Assembly: GCA_946625925.1 (NCBI GenBank)
Contig: CAMOTP010000001.1
Coordinates: 2,770-66,769 of the forward strand
From: an uncultured Alphaproteobacteria bacterium
GTDB lineage: Bacteria > Pseudomonadota > Alphaproteobacteria > Rs-D84
DNA length: 64,000 nt
Direction: 5' to 3'
The number at the start of each line of letters is the position of its first letter. The stretch's first letter is position 1. The notes beneath the pieces were generated by a model. The model searched no databases. It had not been told where the DNA came from and was given only the letters and a program-made list of their open reading frames with translations. Shown here piece by piece: positions 4,440 through 49,120 of the stretch. The position numbers and the translations under genes are program-made.

Positions 4440-4441
4440 TT

Positions 4442-6905: not shown

Positions 6906-6935
6906 ATGTGTGTGCTTGTTTTTTTATGTGAATTT

Positions 6936-6944: not shown

Positions 6945-6953
6945 GTATTTGTT

Positions 6954-8102: not shown

Positions 8103-8144
8103 TTGTTGAAAAATAAAAGAAAGTATATATAATTCCGCCTATAC

Positions 8145-8235
8145 GGAGATGTGGCAGAGCTGGTTGAATGCGCGCGACTCGAAATCGCGTATACGGGCGA
8201 CCGTATCGGGGGTTCGAACCCCTCCATCTCCGCCA
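8145..8235 (+). tRNA. tRNA-Ser (anticodon CGA)
   Basis: Acceptor GGAGATG/CATCTCC-G-CCA, anticodon loop CTCGAAA, long variable arm, T-loop GGGGGTTCGAACCCCTC. Confidence 0.85.
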
Positions 8236-8352
8236 GAGTTAAAATTATAAAAATGCACGCACAGTCGTGTTTTTTTATTGGTTTTTGGCTTGCTTTGGTG
8301 GGTAAAAAAATTTAAGATGTGTCTTGGTAAGTATCAAGGTTAGGGGAATATT

Positions 8353-11844: not shown

Positions 11845-11845
11845 A

Positions 11846-13140: not shown

Positions 13141-13205
13141 ACGGAAATTAAACAAAAATTTGTTTTTTCAGTTTTTGTATGATATAATTTAAGGAAACAG
13201 AGAGA

Positions 13206-13796: not shown

Positions 13797-13799
13797 ATA

Positions 13800-13824
13800 A
13801 ACCGGCATATATGCCGGTTTTTTA
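13800..13824. terminator. bidirectional rho-independent terminator
   Basis: Hairpin ACCGGCATATATGCCGGT flanked by A-run and T-run, between convergent genes. Confidence 0.7.
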
Positions 13825-14475
13825 TCTTTGTGGTGTGGCGACAAAACAACGTAGCCAATGGTTAAATTTTGCATCAAATCCATTTTGATTAAATGCTTTA
13901 ATCCACCAATCATTTGGTTTAACTGTTTTTAATTCTTGGCAAGTTCCTAATTCTTGTCCCATTTTTTTAGCCGCATCATAATCTTCGATTGTATTATGAA
14001 TTGCGCAGACCATATTCGCGTTTTGAAATTTTGATAGCACCGCTGGTAAGGTCGCCTCGTCAAAATATGTAAGTATGCCGTTACAATAAACCAAGTCTGC
14101 CTTAATAGGTTTGCAATCTAAAATAGATTTTATTTGAATATACCCGTTTTGACGCAATTTTAACAATTCACTTTTTGCAACAACCTTGCGTGATTCGCCT
14201 TGTTGAACCCAAAAAGGCCAACCAGAAAACATTGGGCTATAAAAAGTCTTGGCGGTAAAATAATCACGAATATCAACCCCACGTGCATTCATGCCAGCAT
14301 CCATCGCTAATTTTATAACCACGCCAGTCGCAGCCCCACAATCAAAGAAGGTTTTTGGCTTTTTATCGTAATGCTGTTTGTAAACAGATGCCAGCATTTT
14401 TGGTGGCACAGAGCACATTACACCTTCTGGGTATGAATATTGCAAATATGGGTATTTTTTATCGTAATAATGCAT
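13822..14475 (-). CDS. putative class I SAM-dependent methyltransferase
   Basis: Motif I-like FFDCGAATGVV; 217 aa; otherwise unrecognised. Confidence 0.45.
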   Translation of the reverse strand: MHYYDKKYPYLQYSYPEGVMCSVPPKMLASVYKQHYDKKPKTFFDCGAATGVVIKLAMDAGMNARGVDIRDYFTAKTFYSPMFSGWPFWVQQGESRKVVAKSELLKLRQNGYIQIKSILDCKPIKADLVYCNGILTYFDEATLPAVLSKFQNANMVCAIHNTIEDYDAAKKMGQELGTCQELKTVKPNDWWIKAFNQNGFDAKFNHWLRCFVATPQR

Positions 14476-14655
14476 TACTTGTCTCCTGATAATTTCAGTA
14501 AATCATATTTTGTTAATTTTTCAATGTTTTTCTTGCTTTTTTCAAAATCTTACTATAAAATAGGTTCGATTTTCGCGGGTGGGCGCGTTAATCATCCGAT
14601 GAACCCCACAAGTCCTTTGCAATTATTTATAAATATTTGATGCAAACGGCAAACT

Positions 14656-16362: not shown

Positions 16363-16383
16363 TTTTGCAAATTTCAACATTAA

Positions 16384-16468: not shown

Positions 16469-17329
16469 ATGGAAACAAAAACAAATATTTTAACCCCGGA
16501 ACAATCATTTAGGCAACTTCGCCAAAATGGTTCTTTTGTTATACAAATGGCGCCAAATAACTGGCTGGTGACGGATTTTGCACCAGAATCTTGGGTATAC
16601 AATGTTTACAAACGTACATACAGTTATAAAATATTCAGAAATATGATAAATACTGATGAAAGTATTCAAGAATTTTGTATTATGGGTGATAATAGTATTC
16701 AAGAATTAAATAATTTTTTTCAAAATGTAAAACCAACTATATTTAATTTTGTAGGACGTCCTGGGGCAGGTAAAGGGACACATGGTGGACATTTTGCTGA
16801 AATTTATAAATTGCCTGTTGTAAAAACAGGGGAACTTATTCGTGCATCATATAAAGAATCAAATGCTACAATTACTGAATTAGCAAATAAATTTATTGAT
16901 GATGGTATTAATACTAATTCGGGCAAAAGTATTTGTTTAGATGGATATCCTCGTAATTTTATACAAAAAGACCATTTGTTATCTTATTTACCAAATTATA
17001 ATATATTTACGGTATTTTTGAACACGAACGAAGAGGAATGTTTAAAACGCATATCAAACAGACATGATAGCCATACAAGCGATCAAGACCAAGAAGCAAC
17101 CGAAAGACGTATGGAAAAATATGGTCAATATACGCGAAATGCTATTAAATCTATAAAAGAAGCGGCTTATAGTATTCGTGATATATATTATGCTGAAATT
17201 TCTATTGTACCTGGTGCCGAAAAAGATGTTAATTTTGGTCTGATGATGACTGGTTTAACCAAAGCTTTTAAAAATAAAATCAGTTGGATTGCACAACAAC
17301 AAATCCGAAATACTGATTTGCAAAAATAA
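16469..17329 (+). CDS. P-loop NMP-kinase (adenylate-kinase-like) paralog with ~90-aa N-terminal extension
   Basis: FVGRPGAGKGTHGG P-loop, ...TGELIRAS..., CLDGYPRN (DGFPR-like). Confidence 0.6.
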   Translation: METKTNILTPEQSFRQLRQNGSFVIQMAPNNWLVTDFAPESWVYNVYKRTYSYKIFRNMINTDESIQEFCIMGDNSIQELNNFFQNVKPTIFNFVGRPGAGKGTHGGHFAEIYKLPVVKTGELIRASYKESNATITELANKFIDDGINTNSGKSICLDGYPRNFIQKDHLLSYLPNYNIFTVFLNTNEEECLKRISNRHDSHTSDQDQEATERRMEKYGQYTRNAIKSIKEAAYSIRDIYYAEISIVPGAEKDVNFGLMMTGLTKAFKNKISWIAQQQIRNTDLQK

Positions 17330-18091: not shown

Positions 18092-18183
18092 ATAATCCTT
18101 TATATACACCAAATAATATACCCTAAAAACAAAAATGTCAACTATCAAAATAATTTTTATATATTTGATATTTTTTGACCGCA

Positions 18184-18192
18184 TGTTATAAT
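18184..18192 (+). promoter_or_regulatory. extended -10 element (TGtTATAAT) upstream of adk
   Basis: TGTTATAAT about 25 nt upstream of ATG 18217. Confidence 0.35.
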
Positions 18193-18216
18193 GTCCCAGC
18201 AAAACATGGAGAAAAG

Positions 18217-18795
18217 ATGAAAAACAAACTGATTTTAATGATGGGTGGTCAAGGATCCGGCAAAGGAACTTTGTCTAAGGCATTTTTAGCCGAACATGAC
18301 AATCAATATAATTATATTGAAACTGGTGCAATGTTGCGTGCTCTGCCTGAAAAACATCCGTTAAAAGCAATTATTGCACGTGGTGAATTTGTGCCGGATA
18401 CAGAGGTTTTTACATTATTAAAATCAAAAATAGATTCTGCTGGGGGGGATATTTTGTTGGATGGGTTTCCGCGTAAAGTGTCCCAGGCGGAATGGTTGGT
18501 TTCAACTTTTTCTGACAAATTTGATATAGTTGCGGTATATTTAAATTTGCCTGAATCTTTGATGTTGAAGCGTATTGAAAATCGTATTCGTGAGGGCGGT
18601 GGTCGTGCCGATGATGCGGATAGTGCGGCTGTGCGTCGTCGTTTGGATAATTTTCAGCATGAAACTATGCCAGCAATCAAATGGCTGAAAGGTAATGAAA
18701 AAGTGGTGTTCGTTGAGGTTGCTGTTGCAGATGCACCAGTGGAAGTGAATTATACAGCTTTAGTAGATGCGTTGAAGTCGAATAAAATTATATAA
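18217..18795 (+). CDS. adk: adenylate kinase, short type (no LID insertion)
   Basis: ILMMGGQGSGKGT P-loop, TGAMLRA, LLDGFPR, R..GR.DD; RBS GGAG; 192 aa. Confidence 0.8.
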   Translation: MKNKLILMMGGQGSGKGTLSKAFLAEHDNQYNYIETGAMLRALPEKHPLKAIIARGEFVPDTEVFTLLKSKIDSAGGDILLDGFPRKVSQAEWLVSTFSDKFDIVAVYLNLPESLMLKRIENRIREGGGRADDADSAAVRRRLDNFQHETMPAIKWLKGNEKVVFVEVAVADAPVEVNYTALVDALKSNKII

Positions 18796-18817
18796 ATTGA
18801 ATAAATGGAGAAACAGT

Positions 18818-19537
18818 ATGACAACAAACAGACAAAAACAAATTGAAAAGAATGAAGCGATAATCGCAAAATTAAAAAGACAAACAAAACCAACTATGGT
18901 AATTGTGTTGGGGGTCCAAGGTTGTGGTAAAGGAACACAATCAGAAATGTATTTAAGTGAACATTCTACACGCGTTAACTATATTGGTAAAAAAACCGTC
19001 AATTACTTAAACGATATTGAACGTCCAATTGAATTTAAATATATTGGTACGGGTGATTTGTTACGTTCACAACCAGAAAATTCACCAGAACGTAAAGCAA
19101 TCGACAAAGGTCATTTTGTCCCTGATTCCGTTATATTTAATTTATTGAATCAAACAATTACCACAGATGTAAATATATGGGGTGACGGTCTGGGGCGCAG
19201 TTTACAACAAGCAAAACAATTAGTTAAATCATATGGTCGCAGATTCAATATTGTTGCTGTCTATTTCAATATGCCTGAATCCCTGGTCGCAGAACGTATT
19301 GCACAACGTAATGCCATGGGTGCTGGACGTGCAGATGATGCAGATATGGCCGCTGTAAAAAAACGTGTAAGTACATTTAACCATGTCACAATGCCTGCAA
19401 TTAATTGGATGCGTGTTAACAAAAATGTTGTATTTACCGAAGTGCCAATTACAAACGATACACCAGATGTAAATTATCAAAAATTAAAAACTATTTTGAA
19501 TACAGCACTGGCACAAAATAATATAATACTGAAATAA
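18818..19537 (+). CDS. adenylate-kinase-like NMP kinase paralog
   Basis: VLGVQGCGKGT, TGDLLRS, GDGLGR replacing DGFPR; C-terminal block GRADDADMAAVKKRVSTFNHVTMPAINW parallels adk GRADDADSAAVRRRLDNFQHETMPAIKW. Confidence 0.65.
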   Translation: MTTNRQKQIEKNEAIIAKLKRQTKPTMVIVLGVQGCGKGTQSEMYLSEHSTRVNYIGKKTVNYLNDIERPIEFKYIGTGDLLRSQPENSPERKAIDKGHFVPDSVIFNLLNQTITTDVNIWGDGLGRSLQQAKQLVKSYGRRFNIVAVYFNMPESLVAERIAQRNAMGAGRADDADMAAVKKRVSTFNHVTMPAINWMRVNKNVVFTEVPITNDTPDVNYQKLKTILNTALAQNNIILK

Positions 19538-34084: not shown

Positions 34085-34597
34085 ATGTTCGGTTTTGGTA
34101 AAAAGAAAACAGAAACCAAAAAAATTGAAAACGCATCAGAATCAATGGATGATGTAAAAATGCCTTCGGGTATGAAAGAAACCGCTGAACGTATGATGTC
34201 CGGGCAATTTGATATGAATGATATGTTGGCACAATTAAAACAAATTAAAAAAATGAGTAATTTTAGTGGGTTGTTAAAAATGGTGCCAGGAATGAGTGGT
34301 GCTGTTAATGCCATGAAAGAAAAAATCAAAGACGGCAGTGTTGATGCCCAAATTAAAATATTGGAAGCAATGACTGCCGAAGAACGTGCTGATCCAGAAA
34401 AGATTTTCGCAAATGCAAAAACACGTATTTCTGAAAAGGCAGGTTGTACTGTTCGTGATGTTGAACATATTATAAAACAGTACTTAAATATGAAACGACA
34501 AATGGCAATGATTCAACGCATGGGGGGAATGGAGGCGGTGATGCAACGTATGCAACAAGGCGGCGGTGTGCCAGGAACCCCCGGAGGAATCAAATAA
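34085..34597 (+). CDS. stand-alone SRP54/Ffh M-domain protein (no NG GTPase domain)
   Basis: FDMNDMLAQLKQIKKM..., ILEAMTAEERADPEKIF, TRISEKAGCTVRDVEHIIKQY align to the E. coli Ffh M domain; own AAGGAG RBS; upstream gene is uvrA. Confidence 0.7.
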   Translation: MFGFGKKKTETKKIENASESMDDVKMPSGMKETAERMMSGQFDMNDMLAQLKQIKKMSNFSGLLKMVPGMSGAVNAMKEKIKDGSVDAQIKILEAMTAEERADPEKIFANAKTRISEKAGCTVRDVEHIIKQYLNMKRQMAMIQRMGGMEAVMQRMQQGGGVPGTPGGIK

Positions 34598-35229
34598 TGA
34601 AAAAAACACAAATGTTAAGACCTATTGCGGTTGGTGACATTTATCCTGTGAAATCACAATCTAGAATGGGTGGTGATTGTTTAAAAGGGTGTCGTGTTGA
34701 AGTTACATATGAAGGTGTGGCACCAATTTGCAAACGAACATTGGGACAAATGGGATTGTTTAATCCTGGGTATGGTGTTTCGTGTTCAAAGGTGGTTGTG
34801 GATAGTAATCGTAGTAACACAGTTGTTGAATACCTTTTTCCTGAAGGTGTGTTGTTTCCGGAACCTTTTGCACGTGCAAAAAAATTTTGTGATGTGGTGA
34901 AAGGGGCAATTGAAAATTTTCATCCTGTGCGTGTTTCGAATCTTAGAGAAGAAATGGCATTGAATTTTTTTGATGAATTATATGTCTCGGGTTGTTCTGT
35001 GACGGTCAATTATCCAATTGCCGCGTATGACAACCCATTTTTTAAGAAATTTATAGAACGTGGTCAACCCAGGGTTGTAAAAGTGTATCTGAATAAAGAT
35101 ACTGGGGTGGCTGGTGTTGAATATTTTATTAAAAAAGGAAAAGAAGAAACTGTCGGCAGCATTTATAATCGTATGAATGATTTTCGTGACGATATGTTGA
35201 AACGTATACCTCGTGAAAATATTAAATAA
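34597..35229 (+). CDS. hypothetical protein
   Basis: 210-aa ORF coupled (TAATG) to the Ffh M-domain gene; no recognised domain. Confidence 0.4.
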   Translation: MKKTQMLRPIAVGDIYPVKSQSRMGGDCLKGCRVEVTYEGVAPICKRTLGQMGLFNPGYGVSCSKVVVDSNRSNTVVEYLFPEGVLFPEPFARAKKFCDVVKGAIENFHPVRVSNLREEMALNFFDELYVSGCSVTVNYPIAAYDNPFFKKFIERGQPRVVKVYLNKDTGVAGVEYFIKKGKEETVGSIYNRMNDFRDDMLKRIPRENIK

Positions 35230-35231
35230 AA

Positions 35232-35294
35232 ATAAATCTTCGGTTGTGTGGATTTAACGCCAGGTGGCTGACCCGTATGTGGAACGCGCACATT
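35232..35294 (+). pseudogene. degenerate duplicate of the rlmE 5' end
   Basis: ~63 nt aligns at ~80% identity to rlmE codons 10-30 at 36343..36406; the translated copy carries stops. Confidence 0.6.
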
Positions 35295-35351
35295 ATGTTC
35301 CAGAGTATTTTGGTGGCACGCGTTGAAGAAACAAAATAAAAGGAGTGAAAA

Positions 35352-35702
35352 ATGTCTAAATTTTTGAAAGAAAAATGGAATAATGTTCGTGCCACAAAAC
35401 AAGCAAAAAAAGATGCGATATCGGAAATAAGCGTATTGTCGAGTACAGAATACGATGATGTCTGTATCCAAGATGTTATACAAACTGAACTGATGCAGCG
35501 GAACCCTGGTAATACAGAAATACCATTAGCATTGAGAAAATATTGCAAACATTTTGATGAAAAGCGCGTATGTGATAATGTGGATTGCCCTATGCATGAT
35601 AAAAATGAGCAATATATTGCAACACGTTTAGAATATAAACGGGCGCGAGGTGAATTTTTCAATATTCTATTTCATGGTCGTAAAAATTACTTTGATAAAT
35701 GA
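35352..35702 (+). CDS. hypothetical small protein (Cys/His-containing)
   Basis: 116-aa ORF between the rlmE-fragment duplicate and rlmE; CDNVDCPMHD segment. Confidence 0.4.
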   Translation: MSKFLKEKWNNVRATKQAKKDAISEISVLSSTEYDDVCIQDVIQTELMQRNPGNTEIPLALRKYCKHFDEKRVCDNVDCPMHDKNEQYIATRLEYKRARGEFFNILFHGRKNYFDK

Positions 35703-35740
35703 TAAAAAGCGGGTATATTAGGGGTGTAGAGGAATAAAAT

Positions 35741-35980
35741 ATGGCCGAAAAGTTGGTTGATATATCATCGGTTGATCCTGTGTATAATAAAAAGGGCACC
35801 AAAATTATTGGTTGGAAGTTCAGTGCAACATACATAATTATGATACCTATGACGCGGCCTAGTAAGTTATGTTTTTATTCAACCAGGGTTCAAGAATATA
35901 GTTTTTGTAATCTTTTTGGTTTGGGATACACATTGGCGCAAAAGGTACGAGATAGAAAATTGGCAGAAGTGCAGAGGTAA
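35741..35980 (+). CDS. hypothetical small protein
   Basis: 79-aa ORF; no features. Confidence 0.25.
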   Translation: MAEKLVDISSVDPVYNKKGTKIIGWKFSATYIIMIPMTRPSKLCFYSTRVQEYSFCNLFGLGYTLAQKVRDRKLAEVQR

Positions 35981-35981
35981 T

Positions 35982-36326
35982 ATGATGAAAAGACGAAAAG
36001 CTCAACCCGTTCAAGTATCACAATGTAATCCTGTTTATATTAACGGAAAGTTGAAATATTGGAATTTGTCTGTGGAATATTTAGGTGATTTGCGTTTGCC
36101 AAATCAACAGTTTTTACCGCGTGATTTTGGTGAATATGGTGTCGTTTTAAATCCTGTTATTTCTGTGCGTAAATTGCGTTATGTTAATACTGTAAAATAT
36201 GATAATAATACTGGAAATACAAAATTGACTTACGTTTTTCGTGACGGTCTTTTTGGGCGTGGTGCGGAAAAAGCATGGCAATTAAGAATATGGATGTTGG
36301 CGAGAATCAATGAAAATATTAAATAA
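35982..36326 (+). CDS. hypothetical small protein
   Basis: Start MMKRRKAQPV; overlaps rlmE start by 17 nt. Confidence 0.4.
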   Translation: MMKRRKAQPVQVSQCNPVYINGKLKYWNLSVEYLGDLRLPNQQFLPRDFGEYGVVLNPVISVRKLRYVNTVKYDNNTGNTKLTYVFRDGLFGRGAEKAWQLRIWMLARINENIK

Positions 36327-36969
36327 AAAAATTGCTGCACATAAATCTTCGGCTGATTGGATTCGTCGTCAGGCGGCTGATCCTTATGTTGAACGTGCAC
36401 ATCGTGATGGATATCGTGCACGTGCTGCATATAAACTGATTGAAATGAACGACAGATTCCATTTTTTGAAAAATGGTCAAGTTGTTGTTGATTTGGGGGC
36501 GGCACCGGGGTCTTGGTCACAATATATTGCACGTGATTTTCCAAAATCTAGGATATTTGCTATGGATTTGTTGGAAATTACCCCAATTAATAATGTGGAA
36601 TTTTATCAGGGTGATTTTACGACTGATGCCGCTTTGCAGTGGTTGGAATCTAAATTAAATTTGCCACATGATGTTGAAGGTTGCGGCACCGCGGATGTCG
36701 TTGTTTCTGATATGGCGCCAAATACTGTTGGACATAAAAAGACAGATCATTTGCGTCAAATGGTGTTGTTGGAATATGCATTTGATTTTGCGGTACGCGC
36801 ATTAAAGGTCGGTGGGACATTTGTCGCAAAATCTTTTACAGGTGGCACAACAAATGATTTGTTAAAGCAAATAAAAGAAAGATTTGAAAATGTACATCAT
36901 ATAAAACCACCTGCGTCTCGCAAAGATTCTGTTGAAATGTTTATTGTTGCCACCGGATTCAAAGGGTAG
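36310..36969 (+). CDS. rlmE: 23S rRNA (uridine2552-2'-O)-methyltransferase RlmE/FtsJ
   Basis: RSRAAYKL, VVDLGAAPGSWSQ, catalytic K-D-K-E arrangement; 219 aa. Confidence 0.85.
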   Translation: MKILNKKIAAHKSSADWIRRQAADPYVERAHRDGYRARAAYKLIEMNDRFHFLKNGQVVVDLGAAPGSWSQYIARDFPKSRIFAMDLLEITPINNVEFYQGDFTTDAALQWLESKLNLPHDVEGCGTADVVVSDMAPNTVGHKKTDHLRQMVLLEYAFDFAVRALKVGGTFVAKSFTGGTTNDLLKQIKERFENVHHIKPPASRKDSVEMFIVATGFKG

Positions 36970-37752: not shown

Positions 37753-37761
37753 TGGTATAAT
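37753..37761 (+). promoter_or_regulatory. extended -10 element (TGgTATAAT) upstream of LRR paralog 1
   Basis: TGTGGTATAAT ~25 nt upstream of ATG 37787. Confidence 0.4.
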
Positions 37762-37786
37762 CCCTGTGATAAGAAATGGAATTTTT

Positions 37787-39277
37787 ATGGCAGAAGTAAA
37801 TACAGATGCAGTTTATAAAAAAATAAAAAAACAAAATGGCGAGGGTGTTGCCAAAGTAATCCGCGAAGCGGTGTTGTTGGACGTGCCAAATATTGTGCAT
37901 ATTTTGGAATTTGCTGGAAATAACCCAAATGAAGTGCAAGAACTGGTTCCGATTATTCGTGAAATTTATAAAACGCAGAAAAAATCAGAGTACAAAACAG
38001 ATAAAAATCCATTGGAATTATTATCAGATGCGGGATATGATGCTTTTGTCGTAGAAAATGCAGAACAAAAAAATTCAATTAAGAAATATTTTCGGTCGGG
38101 TGAAGAATTATGCACATTTGGTGACCCACATCGTCATGAAAATTATTATATAATTCATGCAGTTAAACGTGGTGCTGATAAAATAAAACCATCAGATAAT
38201 CCAGAACGTCAGGATGAATATGGAACGTCCGTTATATCAATCCAAATTGCAAAAGATGGTGGTTTTATATCAATAAAAAATCGGTATAACCATACAGTAA
38301 ATAATCCTGACAATACGTTTGATAGTAATCCAGATAAAATTATTCCTGGACTAACGAATTCTTTGAAAAGATATTTTCATGTGTTCTTTAATACCGCAGA
38401 AAGTGAAATGCCAGACAATTTTCGTATGGTGAATGATCGGTTGGTACGATATAATTATGAAATACATAATATTTATTTTGGACCTGATTATTATTTTTCA
38501 GGCAGTGAAATTACCAGATTAAACAATGATTATGAATTGATGTTGGATTGTTTTATTTTGGATACGCGAAATGGGAAAATACAAAATCCAGCAGAATTAA
38601 ATTCTTGGAATTATCCAGTGGATACGACATATAGATTACTTGTTGATTTGTTACAAGAAAAGAAATTAAAGGTTAAGTTAAATCCGGATAATAAAAAAGA
38701 AAAAATTGTGTTGGTTGATGGAATTGATTTGATGCATGTGATGAATGGACAAATGACAGAATTGTTTTTGCCAGGAATTAAAAAAACAGATCATGATTTG
38801 TTCGGTTTTGCATATGGATTAAAAAAACTGAGTATGCCTGATGTTCGTGCAATTGGTGATAATTTTTTACTGGGAAATACTGTGTTGGATTCGTTATATA
38901 TGCCAAAATTACAACGAACCGGTAAAGATTTTTTAACTGGTAATCAAAATTTGTCCGAATTAAATTTGCCTGAATTGGTTGATATGGGTCAGTATTCTTT
39001 GCAAAACAATCATAATTTGGTTTCTATAAATTGTCCAAAGGTTGAATGGTTGGGACATTTGAGTTCTGACCAACCAAGATTAAAGTATTTTTATGCGCCA
39101 TATTTAGATCATAATCAATTGGAATGGTTTGTGCGAAGTGCAGTTCAAAATGAAAATTATGAAATTGCTTTCGCTATAGCAAAAGAGAAAGTTCATCAAA
39201 AAATAGATGCGATGACTGACGATGCAAAATTTCATATCGCCTTTTTGCACAAGAAATATCAGGCAAACAACGAATAA
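37787..39277 (+). CDS. leucine-rich-repeat (BspA-type) protein, paralog 1
   Basis: N-terminal ~200 aa nearly identical to paralog 2 (VYKKIKKQNGEGVAKVIREAVLLDVPNIVHILEFAGNNP...); C-terminal LRR-like repeats L..L.MP.L...G..FL..N. Confidence 0.7.
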   Translation: MAEVNTDAVYKKIKKQNGEGVAKVIREAVLLDVPNIVHILEFAGNNPNEVQELVPIIREIYKTQKKSEYKTDKNPLELLSDAGYDAFVVENAEQKNSIKKYFRSGEELCTFGDPHRHENYYIIHAVKRGADKIKPSDNPERQDEYGTSVISIQIAKDGGFISIKNRYNHTVNNPDNTFDSNPDKIIPGLTNSLKRYFHVFFNTAESEMPDNFRMVNDRLVRYNYEIHNIYFGPDYYFSGSEITRLNNDYELMLDCFILDTRNGKIQNPAELNSWNYPVDTTYRLLVDLLQEKKLKVKLNPDNKKEKIVLVDGIDLMHVMNGQMTELFLPGIKKTDHDLFGFAYGLKKLSMPDVRAIGDNFLLGNTVLDSLYMPKLQRTGKDFLTGNQNLSELNLPELVDMGQYSLQNNHNLVSINCPKVEWLGHLSSDQPRLKYFYAPYLDHNQLEWFVRSAVQNENYEIAFAIAKEKVHQKIDAMTDDAKFHIAFLHKKYQANNE

Positions 39278-39291
39278 GAAAGGGAATTTTT

Positions 39292-40854
39292 ATGGTAGAA
39301 ATTGATACAAATGCGGTTTATAAACAATTAAAAAAACAAAATGGCGAGGGTGTTGCCAAAGTAATCCGCGAAGCGGTGTTGTTGGATGTACCAAATATTG
39401 TGCATATTTTGGAATTTGCTGGGAATAATCCAGATGAAGCACGTGCGTTAATTCCTTTTATTCGTGAACGTTATAAAGCCAAAACAAAATCAGAAATTTT
39501 TGTAGATAAAAATCCGTTGGAATTGTTAAGTGATGCTGGATATGATGCGTTTGTTGTAGAAAACGAAGCACAAAAAAATTCAATTAAAAAATATTTCCGG
39601 TCGGGCGAAGAGTTATGCACTTTTAGTGATCCCGATAGGCATAAAAAATTTTATATGATTCACGCGGTTAAACGTGGTGCTGATAAAATTAAACCGGCGG
39701 CAAATCCGATGCGTCAAGATGAATATGGAACGTCTGTTATATCAATTCAAATTGCCAAAGAGGGCGGTTTTATATCAATAAAAAATCGTTATAACCATAC
39801 GGTGAATGACCCAGATGCAACATTTAGTAATTATCCTGATTTCATTATTCCAGGGCTAACAAATTCATTAAGACAATTTTTTAATGTTGATTTTGATGTG
39901 ACAGAAAGTTTGTTGCCAAATGGTTTTTGTTCTATTAACGGACAAATATTTAAATTTAATTACAGAATATGGGGAAGCATTCCGGGAAAGACGGAGTCTG
40001 GATATTATGGATATGGTGATGGTTTTTATTTTTATGGCGATAATGTTATAAAATTAAATCGTGATTATGAAATAATGCTGGAAAATTATGTCTTGAATCT
40101 TCGTGAAGGGACATTAAAGGATTTGATAAGACATGCATCCAAAGGCCCAACTGAATTTGAACAACAACGGCATCAAAGAAAATTGGAAACCAGGATTTTA
40201 TTAGAAAGGTTTTTCAAGGGTAAAAATATAAAAGTCACTATTAATTCAGAAAATAAACATGAAAAAATTATATCTGCGGATGGTGTTTGGGTGGCCAAGG
40301 TTGTTGATGGCAAAATGATTGAACTGAATTTACCAAATATTACAGAAGTTGGAGATGATTTTTTAAATGATGCCGGACATTTAAAAAAATTGTATATGCC
40401 AGATTTGGAAAAAGCAGGTAAAATGTTTTTGTGGAATGTTTATTCAATAACACAGGTGCATTTGCCAAACTTAAAAGAGGTTGGCTATTCGTTTATACCT
40501 AATGGTGCGTTGAGCCAAATAGAATTACCAAGTTTAAAACGATGTGGTGATGGATTTTTGGAACATAATAATTCTTTGACGGAATTGTATTTGCCAGAAT
40601 TACAATATGCCGATGGTAGGGAATTTTTACCTGACAATTGTGTGTTGCGTCGTTTGGATTTGCCTAAATTGAAAAAGATACCAGAATGGTTTTTATTAAA
40701 GAACACAGTTCTGGAATATTGTAATTTGCCCAGTGTGCAGAAATCTGATAGTAAAAAATTACGGCATGTGCGGTATGTTGTTGCCAAAAATAAATTAAAA
40801 TCTGGATTAAAAAGGGTGTTTTTACCGCAGAAAGCGCAAAGTTATAGTAAATAA
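39292..40854 (+). CDS. leucine-rich-repeat (BspA-type) protein, paralog 2
   Basis: Same conserved N-terminal domain; divergent middle; ~23-aa LRR units (LPNITEVGDDFL..., LPNLKEVGYSFIP..., LPSLKRCGDGFLEHNNSL...). Confidence 0.7.
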   Translation: MVEIDTNAVYKQLKKQNGEGVAKVIREAVLLDVPNIVHILEFAGNNPDEARALIPFIRERYKAKTKSEIFVDKNPLELLSDAGYDAFVVENEAQKNSIKKYFRSGEELCTFSDPDRHKKFYMIHAVKRGADKIKPAANPMRQDEYGTSVISIQIAKEGGFISIKNRYNHTVNDPDATFSNYPDFIIPGLTNSLRQFFNVDFDVTESLLPNGFCSINGQIFKFNYRIWGSIPGKTESGYYGYGDGFYFYGDNVIKLNRDYEIMLENYVLNLREGTLKDLIRHASKGPTEFEQQRHQRKLETRILLERFFKGKNIKVTINSENKHEKIISADGVWVAKVVDGKMIELNLPNITEVGDDFLNDAGHLKKLYMPDLEKAGKMFLWNVYSITQVHLPNLKEVGYSFIPNGALSQIELPSLKRCGDGFLEHNNSLTELYLPELQYADGREFLPDNCVLRRLDLPKLKKIPEWFLLKNTVLEYCNLPSVQKSDSKKLRHVRYVVAKNKLKSGLKRVFLPQKAQSYSK

Positions 40855-42699: not shown

Positions 42700-43662
42700 A
42701 TGAGTCGTTTCTTTCGTGGCTTTTTTATATTGACATTGTGTAGTTCTGTGATGCCTGCATTTGCTAATTGGCAGTATCCTGGACAGTATCAGCGCGATTC
42801 GTGGGCGGGTGATGATGGTATGCGTTTTGTGATGTCTTTGCGTGGTGGTATGGCGTATGGTAAGGGTTCAATTGCAAATGACATTGGGGGATTAACAGGT
42901 TCATATGTTAGAAATACTATTACCGGTGATATAGATACGCGTGCGTGGTTTAATGCGGCATATCCTAATGGTAATCCTGATTATGAAGATGCAGGTTATG
43001 GTCGTTTGGGTGATTTGCCCGCAGCAGAAAATTACAAGGCGGTTTCATTTATTGCGGGATTCAGTGCAGGGTTAACTATGCCGGATACACCACAATGGCG
43101 TGTGGAATTTGGTTTTGATCATATTGCCGAGGCCGATTATAATAAAAATCCATTATTTGATGGTTCGTTACATTTGACATCTGGGTATGTGGTTGATGCA
43201 CAAAGTGGTGGTGTTCAATCTTCGTTATCTACGGATGTGTACAGTGTTATGGCTTTTTATGATTTCTTTGACGGAATAAAAAAACCGGTCAGAACAATGA
43301 TTCCATATGTTGGGGCAGGTGTGGCATATGCTGATACAAAAACTATTTTGCAATTAACAGATTCTTATGGTGATTTGTCGGATGTTTATGAATTGCAAAA
43401 TTTTGGTATTGTTGATGAATATGGGGTTATAAAGTTTAATAAATCAGAAACACACAGTTCTAATTTTGCACCAATACTTTCGGTTGGTTTTTCTTATGGC
43501 GTAAATGACAGGGTGTTTTTAGATGCTGGTTTGCGCGGTATGTATATTTCCAAGGTTAAATGGCAATTAACCAGTTTGGATGATGAACGTCGTCGTGATT
43601 GGTTTAGTGCTGAAAAAATGATGTATATTACGGCTATATTTGGTATGCGTGTAGAGTTTTAG
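42700..43662 (+). CDS. outer-membrane beta-barrel protein
   Basis: Signal peptide ...MPAFA; alternating amphipathic strands; C-terminal ...MRVEF (terminal Phe). Confidence 0.6.
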   Translation: MSRFFRGFFILTLCSSVMPAFANWQYPGQYQRDSWAGDDGMRFVMSLRGGMAYGKGSIANDIGGLTGSYVRNTITGDIDTRAWFNAAYPNGNPDYEDAGYGRLGDLPAAENYKAVSFIAGFSAGLTMPDTPQWRVEFGFDHIAEADYNKNPLFDGSLHLTSGYVVDAQSGGVQSSLSTDVYSVMAFYDFFDGIKKPVRTMIPYVGAGVAYADTKTILQLTDSYGDLSDVYELQNFGIVDEYGVIKFNKSETHSSNFAPILSVGFSYGVNDRVFLDAGLRGMYISKVKWQLTSLDDERRRDWFSAEKMMYITAIFGMRVEF

Positions 43663-44770: not shown

Positions 44771-45100
44771 ATGAAACGCAAACAAATTCAATATGCGCAA
44801 CCATATAAAATTCGCAGTGTTCAAAGTGTTTTTAATGCGGATAATGGTGTTGCAGGATATGATGTAGAGGTTTGTTTTAACGGAACCACAAATATTCCAC
44901 AACCTCGTTGGGCGGATCCTGAAAATATCTATGCGTACCAAGATGTTAACGCGGGAACCAGTCGTGTGGTTTATTATTTCCCTTTTGTTGGACATGGTGT
45001 AATAAACTGGGGCAAGATTGCGGCAAAACATTGGTTCAGAAAAATGCTGAAACAAATGGGGACATGTGTTGTGTTTGACGCGCAGGGTAATCAAAGATAA
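44771..45100 (+). CDS. small hypothetical protein A of the tandem array
   Basis: 109 aa; preceded by junction motif AAAAGATAAAAGG; ends ...GNQR. Confidence 0.5.
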   Translation: MKRKQIQYAQPYKIRSVQSVFNADNGVAGYDVEVCFNGTTNIPQPRWADPENIYAYQDVNAGTSRVVYYFPFVGHGVINWGKIAAKHWFRKMLKQMGTCVVFDAQGNQR

Positions 45101-45111
45101 AAGGTAATAAA

Positions 45112-45450
45112 ATGTCTGAATGGGGTATTGAACAACACAGTACTTTTGGAAATGCCGGCGGTTGTTTTGTCGATTGTCTTTCTTGTGTTGGTGCAGTCGC
45201 GATTATTGTTGGATTGGCAACTATTGATAGCAAGCAAGATAAACCAAGAGCAAAAGATAAAGCGCAACCAAAAGTGGAATCTGTTGAACAAAATGCCGTT
45301 GCTATTCCTCGGGATACGGCGATGTTTGTTCCTGCAAATGATGCGGTCTTTCGTGATATAGAAAAGCAAAACGAATTTTTGTTGCAAAAAACCGCCCGCG
45401 AAATAAACGAAATCGACAGATTATCACGTATGCACAGCCACACAAGATAA
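45112..45450 (+). CDS. small hypothetical protein B of the tandem array (one predicted TM helix)
   Basis: 112 aa; hydrophobic CLSCVGAVAIIVGLATI; junction motif upstream. Confidence 0.5.
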   Translation: MSEWGIEQHSTFGNAGGCFVDCLSCVGAVAIIVGLATIDSKQDKPRAKDKAQPKVESVEQNAVAIPRDTAMFVPANDAVFRDIEKQNEFLLQKTAREINEIDRLSRMHSHTR

Positions 45451-45464
45451 AAAAGGAAACAATC

Positions 45465-45938
45465 ATGGCAGATATTCCAAATACAGAATACATTACAATT
45501 AACAAAGACGGAATTTTCGTTGGTGGAAAACCTGCAGAAACATATCGAGGTGAGGAAATATTGTTGCTGAATGGTGTGCAAAAAAATTTTGCAGATATCC
45601 AAAGATTAAATGAAACCGTTGCAGAATTGCATGTGTTGTCATCGGAAACACGTGGTGAATATGTCAAGGTGGGTAATCCATCAGGAAACCATGGCCAAAA
45701 TGCATGGTGTCGGGTAAAATTTAATGATGGGCGTGTTGCTTCGTGGGTGTTCTGCAACGCGTACAGTTCGGCGGCCAATTGTGCGTTCTACTGTGCGTAC
45801 GTCTGCGCGGGCAACGTTCGCGGGTTTGCGAACTTCCGTTCGGCGGTGTTGGGTGCGGTTGATAAAGAAAAAACACCACAAACACCAATAAACCCTGTTG
45901 TGGTTGCTGCAAACAACAACGCACAAAACAAAAGATAA
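45465..45938 (+). CDS. small hypothetical protein C of the tandem array (Cys-rich; paralog of E)
   Basis: 157 aa; shares YITINKD.FVGGKPA..YRG.EI...LSSETRGEY.VGNPS..HG.NAWCR.KFN.G.V..WVF with E; last 19 nt identical to the ACP-like gene end. Confidence 0.55.
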   Translation: MADIPNTEYITINKDGIFVGGKPAETYRGEEILLLNGVQKNFADIQRLNETVAELHVLSSETRGEYVKVGNPSGNHGQNAWCRVKFNDGRVASWVFCNAYSSAANCAFYCAYVCAGNVRGFANFRSAVLGAVDKEKTPQTPINPVVVAANNNAQNKR

Positions 45939-45950
45939 ACGGTTTATAAA

Positions 45951-46241
45951 ATGACAGAATCTGATATGACCCCAAATATAATTAAAAAGTTCGTAAAACG
46001 TATTACGTACGCACCTTATATATGCAAAATACCACGTCGTGGAATACAAGAAATAACATGTTATCCTGATGCAATAGTGCTTCACTTTAATGGAAAAAGA
46101 ATAGGATACTCTGAACGCGAAAAAACAATGATTGTTCTGCCGGGTGTTCGCGGAAAAGATGGTATATGTTCTGCTCAAACTGCTGTGGCAAACTATTTAT
46201 TACAAAAAAAGAAACGTGAACAAAAGATAAAAGGTTCGTAA
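45951..46241 (+). CDS. small hypothetical protein D of the tandem array
   Basis: 96 aa; junction motif variant AAAAGATAAACGG upstream. Confidence 0.45.
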   Translation: MTESDMTPNIIKKFVKRITYAPYICKIPRRGIQEITCYPDAIVLHFNGKRIGYSEREKTMIVLPGVRGKDGICSAQTAVANYLLQKKKREQKIKGS

Positions 46242-46242
46242 A

Positions 46243-46761
46243 ATGACAGATATTAAAAATACAGCATATATCACAATTAATAAAGATGATGTTTTTGTTG
46301 GTGGGAAACCGGCGATAAAATATCGTGGGGTAGAAATAGCGTGGACTGAATATTTATGGGAACATTTTGAAGCAATACAAAAAATGCATCCAGATATTAT
46401 GGAAATGCACGCCCTATCATCAGAAACACGTGGTGAATATTGCGTGGTTGGTAACCCGTCGGCAAAACACGGTTACAACGCATGGTGTCGTGCAAAATTT
46501 AATAATGGACATGTTTCCCCATGGGTGTTTGTTAGAGAGTGTGATTCAATGGATGAATGCGCAAGTCGTTGTGCATATCAAAGTCTGGATGGCTTTCGTA
46601 TTTCTGCACAAATGCGTTCTGCTGCTTTGGGGACACCAGATCATTTGATAAAGGTATTAAAAGACGTGGATTTATCTAACTGTGTTGGGAAACCTGTGCA
46701 ATTAAACGGTTATAAAATCATTGTTGAAAAAATTGCTGAAACACAACAAATCAAAAGATAA
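46243..46761 (+). CDS. small hypothetical protein E of the tandem array (paralog of C)
   Basis: 172 aa; see C. Confidence 0.55.
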   Translation: MTDIKNTAYITINKDDVFVGGKPAIKYRGVEIAWTEYLWEHFEAIQKMHPDIMEMHALSSETRGEYCVVGNPSAKHGYNAWCRAKFNNGHVSPWVFVRECDSMDECASRCAYQSLDGFRISAQMRSAALGTPDHLIKVLKDVDLSNCVGKPVQLNGYKIIVEKIAETQQIKR

Positions 46762-46774
46762 AAAGGGAAATAAA

Positions 46775-47146
46775 ATGTCTGGTTCATACAGTGTGTTTGA
46801 CGAAAATGGACACTATAAACCTGGAACTTATAATAACGGTTATGGGGCAAAGATAGGGTGGCCAACAGAAAAATATTCTAAACATGATGCCGGTGCTTTA
46901 GATAATCAATCCGGCAAAAAATCTGGTGGTGGTATCGGTATTGAATATGATTTTTTTGTTGTTTTTTGTTGTGCAGCAATTTTTTTGACCACTGTTATCT
47001 GTGTTGGTAATCCATTTGTTTGTGAACATAAAGATAATAAAAAAACAGAAAATACAAAAAATGTTGATAAAGTCAGTCATGATGAAAAATATAATAAATC
47101 AACATTGTTTATAACTTCTTGGGCATTAAATCAGAAAATTAAATGA
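46775..47146 (+). CDS. small hypothetical protein F of the tandem array (one predicted TM helix)
   Basis: Start MSGSYSVF after AAAAGATAAAAAGGG; hydrophobic FFVVFCCAAIFLTTVICV. Confidence 0.5.
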   Translation: MSGSYSVFDENGHYKPGTYNNGYGAKIGWPTEKYSKHDAGALDNQSGKKSGGGIGIEYDFFVVFCCAAIFLTTVICVGNPFVCEHKDNKKTENTKNVDKVSHDEKYNKSTLFITSWALNQKIK

Positions 47147-47161
47147 TAAAAAGGCAAACAA

Positions 47162-47500
47162 ATGTCAGGGGATTTTTATTGCATTATCGAACACGAACCA
47201 ATTGAAATACCGGTTGCAACAGTGACTGTTCCGCGGACAAAGCATAAAGAAAGTAAAGATAATGCATCACATAGTGGTGATGATTTTTCTTGTCCTTATG
47301 ATTTAAAATATTGTGTCGAAACGATAAATGCGTATCAAAAATTTGAAGAACGTGTTAGGAATGCTTTTGAAACAGGCAGTGAAGAATTGATTTTTCAACA
47401 AGATGGTTTTAGTGTTGATTGTCCACCGTGTGATGATGTGATGCGTGCGAATTGTGCGCGTTATAAAATTTGGTGCAAAGCGCAATGTAAACAAAAATAA
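47162..47500 (+). CDS. small hypothetical Cys-rich protein G of the tandem array
   Basis: 112 aa, 9 Cys incl. CPPCDD; junction variant AAATGATAAAAAGG upstream. Confidence 0.5.
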   Translation: MSGDFYCIIEHEPIEIPVATVTVPRTKHKESKDNASHSGDDFSCPYDLKYCVETINAYQKFEERVRNAFETGSEELIFQQDGFSVDCPPCDDVMRANCARYKIWCKAQCKQK

Positions 47501-47502
47501 AG

Positions 47503-47527
47503 AACCGGTCCATTTGGGCGGTTTTTT
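47503..47527 (+). terminator. rho-independent terminator ending the small-ORF array
   Basis: AACCGGTCCATTTGGGCGGTT + T6. Confidence 0.65.
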
Positions 47528-47543
47528 ATTATAATAATAATTA

Positions 47544-47571
47544 TTGACAATATTTTATTTTGTCTTATAAT
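47544..47571 (+). promoter_or_regulatory. sigma70-like promoter (TTGACA-16-TATAAT)
   Basis: TTGACA 47544-49, TATAAT 47566-71, ~30 nt upstream of ORF 47602. Confidence 0.4.
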
Positions 47572-47601
47572 TATAAGGGCAATTAAAAAAAAGGGTGAAA
47601 T

Positions 47602-47850
47602 ATGCAAAATAAATCTAGAAAAAGAATATTAAACAATAATACTCGTGATTGGTTGGCGTGTTTATTTGGTAGCGCAGGATTTATAGCGGTTTTATTGGCT
47701 GCTGGGACTGATGATTATCGTTTCAGTTCTGAATATAATCCTGAAAAAGATAAAATCGCCAGTACAGAAACCACCACAGCGATGGCATTGGGGGGAACGG
47801 CGGCATTGTTGGGCGCAACAATTTTGTTGGCAGGCAAGAAAGAATATTAA
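47602..47850 (+). CDS. small two-TM membrane protein (holin-like topology)
   Basis: 82 aa; two hydrophobic helices (LACLFGSAGFIAVLLAAG, MALGGTAALLGATILLAG); charged C-terminus. Confidence 0.45.
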   Translation: MQNKSRKRILNNNTRDWLACLFGSAGFIAVLLAAGTDDYRFSSEYNPEKDKIASTETTTAMALGGTAALLGATILLAGKKEY

Positions 47851-47874
47851 TCCAGATAATTACAGGGGGGTATC

Positions 47875-48336
47875 ATGGCAAGTACAGGTGCTATTACATC
47901 GCAGTATGTAAATTTCATCGGAAACGAAGTTGTCAATAAATTTGGTGGTTCTTACCAGACATATGAAAGTATGGGCAGATTGTGGCGTCAAAAAATGGAT
48001 TATAATCCAAAAGTTGAAGAATTTGCTGTTTCGCAATCTAAATTATTTTTAAGACTGTTGGATATTCGTGACCAAGGCAACTTTAATATGATGTATAAAG
48101 TTTGCTATAACATCGCAGAATATTTGTCAAAATATATTGTCAAAAAATCGCCAGAGTTAACCAGAGCAAAGGTTACAGATACATTGTTAGACGAGTTGTT
48201 TTTGCATTCTGACAGATTTGTTGCGAAATTTAACAAGGCTTATAAACGCCCGATTGATATGTCTGATACTAATTATGTGACATATAATCCAGGGGTTATT
48301 GCGATGTATAAAGCTATACATGGTACGCAACATTAA
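47875..48336 (+). CDS. hypothetical protein
   Basis: 153-aa ORF, no recognised domain. Confidence 0.4.
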   Translation: MASTGAITSQYVNFIGNEVVNKFGGSYQTYESMGRLWRQKMDYNPKVEEFAVSQSKLFLRLLDIRDQGNFNMMYKVCYNIAEYLSKYIVKKSPELTRAKVTDTLLDELFLHSDRFVAKFNKAYKRPIDMSDTNYVTYNPGVIAMYKAIHGTQH

Positions 48337-48349
48337 AAGGGATTTATTG

Positions 48350-49120
48350 ATGAGAACGTTTAATAACAAAGGCGTTTATGAATCACCATTTAAATATGAT
48401 CGTGATTTCAAGGTCAGAGTACGTTGTGATGGACTCGATTTACCAGAATATTGTGGCAATTGGAATCAGGCGGGTCATATTATTCCATATCCAGAAACTT
48501 TACAAACATATATTTTCCCACTTATAAGATCTGCGGGGCTGGGTGAAGATGGATTGCAATTCGAACGCGAATATATTGTAAGCAGTAAAAGACGCGGATT
48601 ATTATATCGTGGTGTTAGTAATTTGTTGAGGGCTTTGGATGATATGCCATCGCGTTCGTGGTCTGGAAATGGTTTAAGTTTTGGTGCACATTATCGTATC
48701 AAAAATGCCAAAGACTATGAAATTTTTCATGCAAAGATGCTTTATGATGATGGACCATATGGTGAAATAGAATTCGAAGTTGAATATTATGATTCAACTG
48801 CTTTGAAATATCGTTATGGTTGGCGCTGTTGGGATGATGAGAAATTTGTCTATGACCTGGATTATGCTGCGATGGATGCAACCACAGATATATTTGGTGT
48901 TTTAGAAAATGCAAAAACACGTTATCGTCCATCAAGTGTATTTTTTGACGTCGCTTCTTATATGCAAACTCCAAGATTTATGCGTCCACGCGGCAGTTTT
49001 TTAATTCCGTTATTGCCTGGCTCTAATGGGTTAGCGTCGCGCAGGGTGCGTCGTGTATTACACAAAATGAATTATTTGTGTGCGAAATACGAGTGGAATA
49101 AATATAATCAAGGTAGATAA
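48350..49120 (+). CDS. hypothetical protein
   Basis: 257 aa from internal ATG (MRTFNNKG) with AAAAGG RBS; no recognised domain. Confidence 0.45.
   Translation: MRTFNNKGVYESPFKYDRDFKVRVRCDGLDLPEYCGNWNQAGHIIPYPETLQTYIFPLIRSAGLGEDGLQFEREYIVSSKRRGLLYRGVSNLLRALDDMPSRSWSGNGLSFGAHYRIKNAKDYEIFHAKMLYDDGPYGEIEFEVEYYDSTALKYRYGWRCWDDEKFVYDLDYAAMDATTDIFGVLENAKTRYRPSSVFFDVASYMQTPRFMRPRGSFLIPLLPGSNGLASRRVRRVLHKMNYLCAKYEWNKYNQGR

Follow-up and report, generated by a model that had tools for sequence, protein, structure and literature searches.

We analysed a pair of adjacent genes, p1 and p2, in a 64,000-nt stretch of contig CAMOTP010000001.1 (GenBank assembly GCA_946625925.1) from an uncultured alphaproteobacterium of the GTDB order Rs-D84; this whole stretch is referred to below as the window. 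Both genes lie on the + strand, p1 at 37787-39277 (an open reading frame (ORF) of 496 amino acids (aa) plus stop) and p2 at 39292-40854 (an ORF of 520 aa), and the public contig carries identical gene calls for the two. An earlier, sequence-only reading of this DNA had described adjacent ORFs of 497 and 520 aa, of which the coordinates and the length of p2 stand, with p1 encoding 496 aa; its broader description, of tandem paralogs that join a conserved N-terminal module to a variable repeat region, was upheld by sequence comparison. The two proteins are 53% identical over 440 aa (BLASTP, E=7e-153), and at the DNA level they share a single ungapped 610-nt match of 81% identity (37773-38382 against 39278-39887) that begins 14 nt 5' of either ATG. 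Over the first ~200 residues the measured protein identity is 79%, below the ~85% at first estimated, and a DNA-level search found no third family copy in the 64-kb window.

Upstream of p1 lies an extended -10 element (TGGTATAAT, 37753-37761, + strand), placed 25 nt before the p1 ATG and recognised by its consensus match and its conservation; the sequence-only reading had pointed to it, and it is indeed present and kept in relatives, where it stands before the first family gene at the related loci L001, L002, L003 and L132 and also before the second gene in L003. No -35 element matching this -10 was found. Between the two genes there is a 14-nt spacer with a purine-rich ribosome-binding stretch (GAAAGGGA, 39278-39291, + strand) that is homologous to the 5' untranslated region (UTR) of p1, and p2 in the window retains only ~21 nt of 5' UTR, a promoter element upstream of p2 being absent in the upstream-region alignment. 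We conclude that p1 and p2 are probably cotranscribed from the extended -10 promoter before p1. Phase variation by homopolymer slippage was considered and rejected, with 5' A-runs only 7 long, and Tandem Repeats Finder, run as a check on phase variation, returned only an 8-nt unit repeated 2.8 times.

In the C-terminal parts of both proteins we recognised leucine-rich repeats (LRRs). Repeat register placed four units of 22 aa in p1 (aa 326-413; 38762-39025, + strand), with a degenerate fifth unit after them, and register together with a structural model placed six units of 21-23 aa in p2 (aa 345-476; 40324-40719, + strand), with a partial seventh. Counted in this way, p1 (4-5 units) and p2 (6-7 units) match the tandem consensus L.LP..L..IG..(A/F)(F/L)..(C/N)..L of 21-23 residues, and the AlphaFold2 model of the repeat region has short strands every 20-23 residues. 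Searched alone against Pfam LRR_5 (PF13306), p1 reached 18.2 bits (E=0.0025), under the 27.7-bit gathering threshold, and p2 gave no match; the same family was matched by 30 of 39 diverse homologs (best E=1.8e-69). The family profile recovered solved LRR_5-type proteins (4fs7 at 3.7e-20, 4gt6 at 8e-15, TpLRR 6mlx at 1e-5), and Foldseek with the p2 model returned TpLRR 6mlx at the top (E=5.7e-6, probability 1.0), then 4gt6, 4fdw, 4fd0, 4fs7 and PcpA 4cp6. From the homolog matches, the family profile and the predicted p2 fold taken together, we assign the p1 and p2 repeats to short, degenerate LRRs of the TpLRR/BspA type (LRR_5). The BspA-type units of ~23 aa proposed in the sequence-only reading thus hold as to class by way of profile and predicted fold, although p1 and p2 fail Pfam on their own.

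The repeats are followed in p2 by a predicted cap helix (aa 484-508, carrying an AKNKLK motif) and a basic tail (40732-40851, + strand), such that the last 40 aa have a net charge of +11. The corresponding p1 C-terminus is helical and uncharged, with a net charge of 0 over the last 40 aa. A positively charged C-terminus, a cap helix and an AKNK.K motif occur in the majority of the family. The scaffold positions of the repeat (L, L, P, F/L) are the same in all p2-type alleles, which vary at other positions of the repeat.

Ahead of the repeats, each protein opens with a conserved domain that we call the N-domain (p1 aa 1-278, 37787-38620; p2 aa 1-285, 39292-40146; both + strand). The AlphaFold2 model of p2 has a mean predicted local distance difference test (pLDDT) score of 87.9, and it shows four helices over aa 1-61, then an alpha/beta core (75-200) and a beta-rich subdomain (212-277), with a long helix (288-305) after them. 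When the p1 domain was aligned with 107 others, 26 columns were invariant across the 108 N-domains (from 78 loci). Conservation of at least 95% across the bacterial family and both of the phage classes introduced below extends to K14, G18, G83, Y84, E106, C109, T110, R116, R141, D143, Y145, G146, T147, S148, Q153, I154, S162, I163, K164, N165, R166, Y167, N168, H169, V171, D175, T177, G188, L189 and E225. About 20 of the N-domain residues conserved at this level across bacteria and phages are polar, a density that suggests an enzyme or a precise ligand-binding site.

Comparisons of the N-domain with known families and structures returned little. It had no usable match in Pfam, NCBIfam, PADLOC or PHROGs, and Pfam searches with 108 members at E<=10 gave scattered weak matches only (Glyco_trans_1_2 in 8, HAD_2 in 4). 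Against PDB sequences neither single-sequence nor profile searches matched, the profiles reaching only Sm D2 at E 0.2-0.6; Foldseek gave no fold match against the PDB (best E 0.15) and none against BFVD, a set of predicted viral structures (best E 0.024). The top Foldseek PDB matches, namely T4 gp34 fibre, GNAT, PARP and pertussis toxin S1, were rejected with template modelling (TM) scores all <0.2. No known enzymatic domain was matched that would make p1 and p2 ordinary isozymes, one half of the outcome, the other being repeats that fail LRR profiles, that the sequence-only reading had named as fatal to its view of the pair. We also considered a Cys109-His169-Asp triad of papain or NlpC/P60 type, a PD-(D/E)xK-like site (E106/D143/S162-x-K164) and an ADP-ribosyltransferase R-S-E site, none of which we claim as no tool result stands behind them; His124 is not invariant, which counted against such catalytic guesses.

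The two genes are members of a lineage-wide multi-copy family of gut and rumen Rs-D84 Alphaproteobacteria. All close relatives of the locus are rumen and gut metagenome-assembled genomes (MAGs) labelled uncultured Alphaproteobacteria or Candidatus Enterousia and belonging to GTDB order Rs-D84. Of the 78 loci we kept, 74 bear names of uncultured (Alpha)proteobacteria or Ca. Enterousia MAGs, two come from 'Lactobacillales' records and two from unclassified 'bacterium' records. The scored candidates included more than 3000 homologs at E<=1e-3, and at least 525 family loci were confirmed in species-representative genomes; a phmmer search of 1.84 billion cluster representatives (50% identity) gave 903 clusters at E<=1e-3, 800 at E<=1e-10 and 204 at E<=1e-30. 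In nearly all of these clusters the N-domain starts at residue 1-10, as it also does in 238 of 268 relatives, and family proteins span 172-1141 aa with 0-16 recognisable repeat units, some of the shortest perhaps being fragments. Uninterrupted head-to-tail arrays, in which the stop codon of one gene overlaps the start codon of the next, count at least 7 members in L059 and at least 5 in L078. Paralogs within arrays are 61-63% identical in the N-core and 28% in the C-terminal part, and some MAGs carry about nine or ten family copies over several contigs. Members of Rs-D84 have genomes <1 Mb without most biosynthetic pathways and are believed to rely on other cells (PMC12306168). The source organism, a rumen Rs-D84 member with a genome <1 Mb, is on this basis host- or partner-associated, in line with the sequence-only reading (PMC12306168). 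One family member, P0039, was seen on an integrative element (L082 2313-18892) that also carries a cytosine methylase with an NgoFVII-type restriction enzyme, a resolvase, a 1138-aa protein, DUF3768, DUF5906 and a phage-type integrase.

Beyond this lineage, the N-domain is homologous, by sequence and profile comparison, to proteins encoded by uncultivated phages or mobile elements. Searching IMG/VR with the alignment of N-domains gave 43 viral loci in two classes. Class A proteins (558-585 aa in complete ORFs) have the N-domain first and a C-terminal half that is not LRR; they lie on viral contigs of up to 208 kb and have close homologs on metagenome contigs of up to 446 kb. This class has >1500 members, and hhalign of the bacterial N-domain alignment against a class A protein gave a probability of 99.9% (E=6e-36, 203 columns). 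Its genes are embedded in long series of very small ORFs that all point one way, near HicA-like and helix-turn-helix (HTH) genes. Examples on metagenome contigs of 110-390 kb, whose sample labels suggest human gut (L085 and L128-L131, e.g., L128 1900-21700), lie in runs of at least 20 kb with dozens of one-directional ORFs of 35-110 aa, among them HicA-like, HTH and DUF8033 genes, a pattern reminiscent of a large phage or conjugative element in its early or leading region.

Class B, encoded on viral contigs of 30-70 kb, consists of giant proteins (3550-3741 aa) in which the N-domain starts ~1420-1910 residues into the protein. In the two class B proteins scanned with Pfam, LRR_5 was matched downstream of the N-domain (E 4e-32 and 2e-44), and in the L116 protein (3741 aa; 4265-15490) the LRR_5 repeats start immediately after it. 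The L119 gene (3550 aa; 5726-16378), the only class B locus with identified neighbours, lies between a virion structural protein (phrog_14478) and a large terminase subunit (phrog_6681). Over the ~3000 residues outside the N-domain and LRR_5, the L116 and L119 proteins had no match in Pfam, PHROGs or, for L116, PDB sequences, no further domain was recognised in the class A proteins (~570 aa), and tblastn against GenBank phages with p2 and with a 570-aa phage-type protein gave no match. A conserved N-domain shared with giant phage proteins, together with tandem arrays in a reduced-genome lineage, is described in no library or literature that we searched.

We then compared synonymous and non-synonymous divergence between p1 and p2, which bears on how the pair came to be alike. 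Outside one tract, the N-cores of p1 and p2 differ by a synonymous divergence (dS) of 1.0, i.e., they are saturated, with a non-synonymous to synonymous ratio (dN/dS) of 0.17. Because synonymous sites are saturated, the N-terminal similarity is old and has been held by purifying selection, and recent duplication as its source is rejected (dS ~1). The exception is at the 5' end (p1 codons 13-48; 37823-37930, + strand; p2 partner 39328-39435), where dS falls to 0.19 against 1.0 in the remaining N-core (Fisher p=0.001). This tract includes the near-identical DNA noted in the sequence-only reading, which we find to encode the same 30-residue peptide in both genes (GEGVAKVIREAVLLDVPNIVHILEFAGNNP; 86 of 90 nt identical, 37838-37927) with a 58-nt exact run within it; the longest p1/p2 stretch with <=5 mismatches is 113 nt (37811-37923). 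Over the tract, the identity of p1 is 92-95% with p2-type alleles and 85% with its own ortholog L003_b, whereas past the tract it is nearer to L003_b than to p2-type alleles. As low a synonymous difference in the tract as that of p1/p2 occurs in only 0.035% of between-genome family pairs, several same-locus pairs dip likewise in the tract, and the two paralogs in L132 agree at 55 of the first 57 nt, after which their identity drops to ~72-75%. Together, the dip in dS, the resemblance to p2-type alleles, the same-locus dips and the L132 pattern point to gene conversion that has repeatedly affected short tracts at the 5' end, with borders differing by genome. A nucleotide-level constraint on the tract (e.g., an RNA element) was rejected, as between-genome pairs show no lowered synonymous difference in the tract (0.73 vs 0.75). 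Where the sequence-only reading had offered recent duplication or gene conversion, then, duplication falls and conversion holds for ~110 nt only.

The history of p2 differs from that of p1 and of the surrounding genes. The pair is flanked by housekeeping genes (uvrA, a 170-aa SRP54 M-domain protein, rlmE, an amino-acid kinase and PBP1A), of which the kinase is the upstream neighbour of p1 and PBP1A the downstream neighbour of p2, its start codon 3 nt past the p2 stop. Against orthologs in L001, L002 and L003, p2 has dS of 0.17, 0.086 and 0.11 (dN/dS 0.23-0.56), whereas uvrA, rlmE, the kinase, PBP1A and a 320-aa gene in the same comparisons have dS of 0.67-1.97 (dN/dS 0.04-0.24). The p2 high-identity tract runs from the ribosome-binding site to the stop codon (L002) or ~170 nt into PBP1A (L001), and in a fourth relative, L132, the p2-like gene has 89.8% DNA identity over a background of 74-79%. 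The regions of p2 that were shared last are its middle and LRR parts (dS 0.03-0.04 vs L002 and L003), and its N-core has dS of 0.15-0.19 and dN/dS of 0.26-0.35. This gene-sized island of low dS amid diverged neighbours identifies p2 as an allele lately spread between species whose housekeeping genes are synonymously saturated. For p1, dS against its ortholog L003_b is 0.96, similar to the flanking-gene background, by which p1 is the resident, vertically inherited copy; L132 also has a p1-type gene (80% aa identity). These close relatives differ in the genes present at the site and in their order, which reads from kinase to PBP1A as [p2] in L001 and L002, [p2][p1] in L003 and L132, and [p1][p2] in the window.

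Low divergence of this kind could also be produced by assembly, if a multi-copy gene of an abundant strain had been joined into the contigs of several species. Every sequence used here is a metagenome assembly, and the 5' exact repeats of up to 58 nt could mislead short-k-mer assemblers. Chimeric assembly is argued against by the alleles being alike and not identical (dS 0.09-0.17; 89-95% DNA identity), by the same pattern recurring in four independent MAGs from different studies as well as in the window, and by a 3' boundary that falls at the stop codon or inside PBP1A, in unique sequence free of repeats. In addition, p2-type proteins of 83-91% identity lie on many separate contigs, and we regard an assembly artefact as very improbable.

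We looked next at how such proteins might leave the cell. Neither p1 nor p2 has a signal peptide, lipobox or hydrophobic segment (highest 19-residue hydropathy 1.2). The sequence-only reading had taken them for typical surface proteins, a view not supported by proteins that lack a signal peptide or anchor. Their N-terminus is part of the domain and is not a cleaved leader, K14 and G18 being invariant also in the phage proteins that carry the domain internally. A positively charged, unstructured C-terminal tail is a trait of type IV secretion substrates; positive charge is seen in p2 (+11) and most of the family and not in p1 (0), and the motif there is maybe an LRR cap. Agrobacterium VirB proteins were searched against 1.09 Mb of family-bearing loci. 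In L047 (3795-8306, - strand), a tandem family pair is followed directly by a VirB11-like gene, and the adjacent 1161-aa protein is VirB10-like (matching ComB10 at 4.9e-19, VirB10 at 2.5e-8, and CagY), with an N-terminal extension that is long and rich in glycine and valine. The L047 record bears the label 'Lactobacillales', which is probably an error. A second VirB11-like gene (L025 10919-11878) lies 3.4 kb from a family gene, and a third, in L136, is solitary among housekeeping genes. The VirB11-like ATPase matches VirB11 structures and keeps 84-87% identity in hundreds of clusters from gut Alphaproteobacteria; the 1.09 Mb sampled yielded neither VirB4 nor VirD4. From the VirB10-like and VirB11-like genes in family-bearing genomes, the lineage has at least part of a type IV system.

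Bringing these observations together, we give an even chance to p1 and p2 being modular effectors directed at a partner or host, which would leave the cell independently of Sec and most plausibly by type IV secretion. In such a protein the N-domain would be the constant active part, the TpLRR/BspA repeat, fast-diverging and variable in length, would be the part that recognises the target and sets specificity, and a basic C-terminal cap helix with its tail usually forms a third part. The targets would be the partner or host cells on which these metabolically dependent bacteria live, and the exit route would be a type IV system with VirB10-like and VirB11-like components. A more far-reaching version holds that the N-domain is a new effector enzyme born in phages or mobile elements, which was domesticated into injected arrays in Rs-D84 and whose p2-like specificities cross species; we consider this version possible though on the unlikely side. 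Under it, the N-domain would travel inside giant virion-associated proteins together with LRR_5, the Rs-D84 arrays would be sets of interchangeable effectors injected (e.g., by the type IV system) into the cell depended on, and new specificities would sweep across species boundaries through recombination at the conserved 5' end.

Several observations weigh against the effector interpretation. For p1 and p2 themselves, we infer the export, the target and the activity of the N-domain, and all genomes compared are metagenome assemblies. The dN/dS of ~1.1-1.8 in the p2 middle and LRR parts is not significantly >1 and comes from few substitutions (2-3.5 synonymous vs 14-15.5 non-synonymous per region). 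VirB-like genes were found in other family-bearing MAGs and not in the 64-kb window, and among solved structures the VirB10-like protein is matched best by ComB10, which belongs to the DNA-uptake system of Helicobacter. Given that match, the VirB-like system could serve competence and not protein export, and DNA uptake would fit the exchange of p2-type alleles. Likewise, the basic tail may be an LRR cap and not a secretion signal, since p1 does without a basic tail (charge 0) and the giant L116 protein has, after its repeats, an NK.RNK run that by eye resembles AKNK.K.

Three other accounts of the family draw on much of the same evidence. The absence of an export signal also fits a cytoplasmic anti-phage immune sensor, in which the repeat would recognise a phage protein and switch on an N-terminal effector. 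In favour of such sensors, the family joins a constant N-domain to a repeat that diversifies, forms tandem arrays and is laterally transferred, one copy lies beside a restriction-modification system on the integrative element in L082, and the domain is common to phages, as many conflict domains are. Yet neither p1 nor p2 matched PADLOC at E<=1, neither a nucleoside triphosphatase (NTPase) nor an oligomerisation module was recognised, the nine or ten or so copies in some MAGs would be a costly defence in a lineage with genomes <1 Mb, and phage copies placed in a virion module or in runs of tiny genes fit offence better; on balance, immune sensors seem fairly unlikely. The repeat class leads to another account, that of classical BspA-like surface adhesins, exported by Sec and displayed so that their repeats bind host or partner cells, as BspA, TpLRR and PcpA are surface or periplasmic proteins and the organism is partner-dependent (PMC12306168). 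Such adhesins would require an export signal, and we found no signal peptide, lipobox, transmembrane segment or known anchor; family proteins start directly with the conserved domain, and the invariance of K14 and G18 where that domain is internal speaks against a cleaved leader, which makes us judge adhesins unlikely.

The link to phages raises the further prospect that p1, p2 and their relatives are remnants of phages or mobile elements that spread selfishly and have no function for the cell, the module being a leftover virion component (receptor-binding or ejected). That the same module occurs in giant phage proteins, one of them next to a terminase gene, that a family copy lies on an integrative element, and that p2 moves between species are all as such remnants would have it. 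What makes them quite unlikely to us is the state and setting of the genes: in the window and in five related contigs (four MAGs) they sit between amino-acid kinase and PBP1A with no phage genes nearby, they are intact with a conserved promoter, their N-domain is under purifying selection (dN/dS 0.13-0.35), and p1 is inherited vertically (dS 0.96).

Elsewhere in the window we made a number of observations on neighbouring genes. The 170-aa SRP54 M-domain-only protein (34085-34597; PF02978, E=1.4e-21) is encoded directly after uvrA and holds the same position in relatives. Between it and rlmE, four lineage-specific small ORFs (210, 116, 79 and 113 aa; 34597-36326) have no Pfam family on record; three were rescanned here, also with none, one of these with boundaries that differ slightly from the recorded call, and the number and size of small ORFs at this position vary among close relatives. 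In L132, a 47-aa FtsJ fragment (2289-2432) lies upstream of an intact rlmE and is 90.8% identical at the DNA level to window positions 36422-36540, far above the 74-79% background, by which it is a small duplicated or transferred piece of rlmE. The 320-aa protein at 42700-43662 has a clear hydrophobic N-terminal leader (MSRFFRGFFILTLCSSVMPAFA), a C-terminal residue F and no Pfam match, and it diverges fast between relatives (62% aa identity, dN 0.28-0.29); from its leader, terminal F and fast divergence, it may be an outer-membrane protein. Ten consecutive same-strand ORFs of 82-256 aa at 44771-49120 are without a Pfam family on record, and two of these ten (45465-45938 and 46243-46761) are paralogs (54% identity, E=1.5e-49). 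On the + strand there are also three adenylate-kinase-like (ADK) paralogs (16469-17329, 18175-18795 and 18797-19537), the first and second separated by an unrelated 236-aa ORF on the - strand; three successive nucleotide kinases are unusual in a <1 Mb genome and may be linked to nucleotide scavenging. GC skew is strongly positive (0.2-0.3) across most of the window, nearly all of whose genes are on the + strand, and is ~0 at 14-22 kb and 58-64 kb, where the - strand genes occur.

The family is of interest well beyond this one locus, as Rs-D84 is a widespread uncultured gut and rumen group and the family fills up to ~2% of a <1 Mb Rs-D84 genome. With its near-invariant domain, its fast-changing repeat and the passing of p2 between species, it is a strong candidate for the interface with the partner cell. 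The N-domain links bacterial genes to giant phage proteins and is without a Pfam, NCBIfam, PHROGs or PDB entry, such that its fold and activity, once defined, would annotate thousands of proteins of unknown function. The locus itself offers, in one gene pair, a clean example of selection that mimics 'recent duplication', of short-tract conversion at the 5' end and of a gene-sized sweep across species.

Set against known systems, the repeat part is of a kind already known, and the combination of N-domain and LRR is in none of the libraries or papers searched. Compared with Tannerella forsythia BspA, Treponema pallidum TpLRR (6mlx), Streptococcus pneumoniae PcpA (4cp6) and the Bacteroides/Faecalibacterium 'cell surface proteins' (as in 4fs7 and 4gt6), p1 and p2 have the same repeat length (21-23), consensus (L.LP..L..IG..FL..N..L) and predicted solenoid. 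Proteins of the BspA/TpLRR type have signal peptides and are surface or periplasmic, unlike p1 and p2, which open with a ~280-residue conserved domain absent from that type. Among pathogens, IpaH of Shigella and SspH of Salmonella (with their NEL ligase), YopM of Yersinia and the LRR effectors of Legionella are secreted without a Sec signal, and the LRR picks the target. By analogy, p1 and p2 would resemble these effectors in joining a variable LRR to a constant, putatively active domain without a Sec signal. They differ in that the constant domain comes first, whereas in IpaH and SspH the LRR is followed by a C-terminal NEL, and in a repeat class that is LRR_5 and not of IpaH or YopM type; no NEL or other known effector domain was matched by Pfam in p1, p2 or their homologs.

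Polyvalent proteins of phages and conjugative elements are very large and multi-domain, are encoded near virion genes and are thought to be delivered with the DNA (Iyer et al. 2017, PMC5512222), a description that the 3550-3741-aa phage homologs fit, the L119 gene adjoining virion and terminase genes. In these giant proteins only the N-domain and LRR_5 were recognised, with no LPD or other polyvalent-protein Pfam family, and PMC5512222 does not mention the N-domain, nor do 'LRR' or 'leucine-rich' occur in it. Unlike polyvalent proteins, p1 and p2 are ~500 aa, have a single module and are chromosomal, lying among housekeeping genes. A further likeness is with Candidatus Mycoplasma girerdii, which lives with Trichomonas and appears to share with the Rs-D84 lineage a small genome, partner dependence and a multi-copy BspA-like family (PMC5476646, PMC10557491). 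What would set the Rs-D84 family apart from the Ca. Mycoplasma girerdii proteins is its conserved N-domain and its link to phages.

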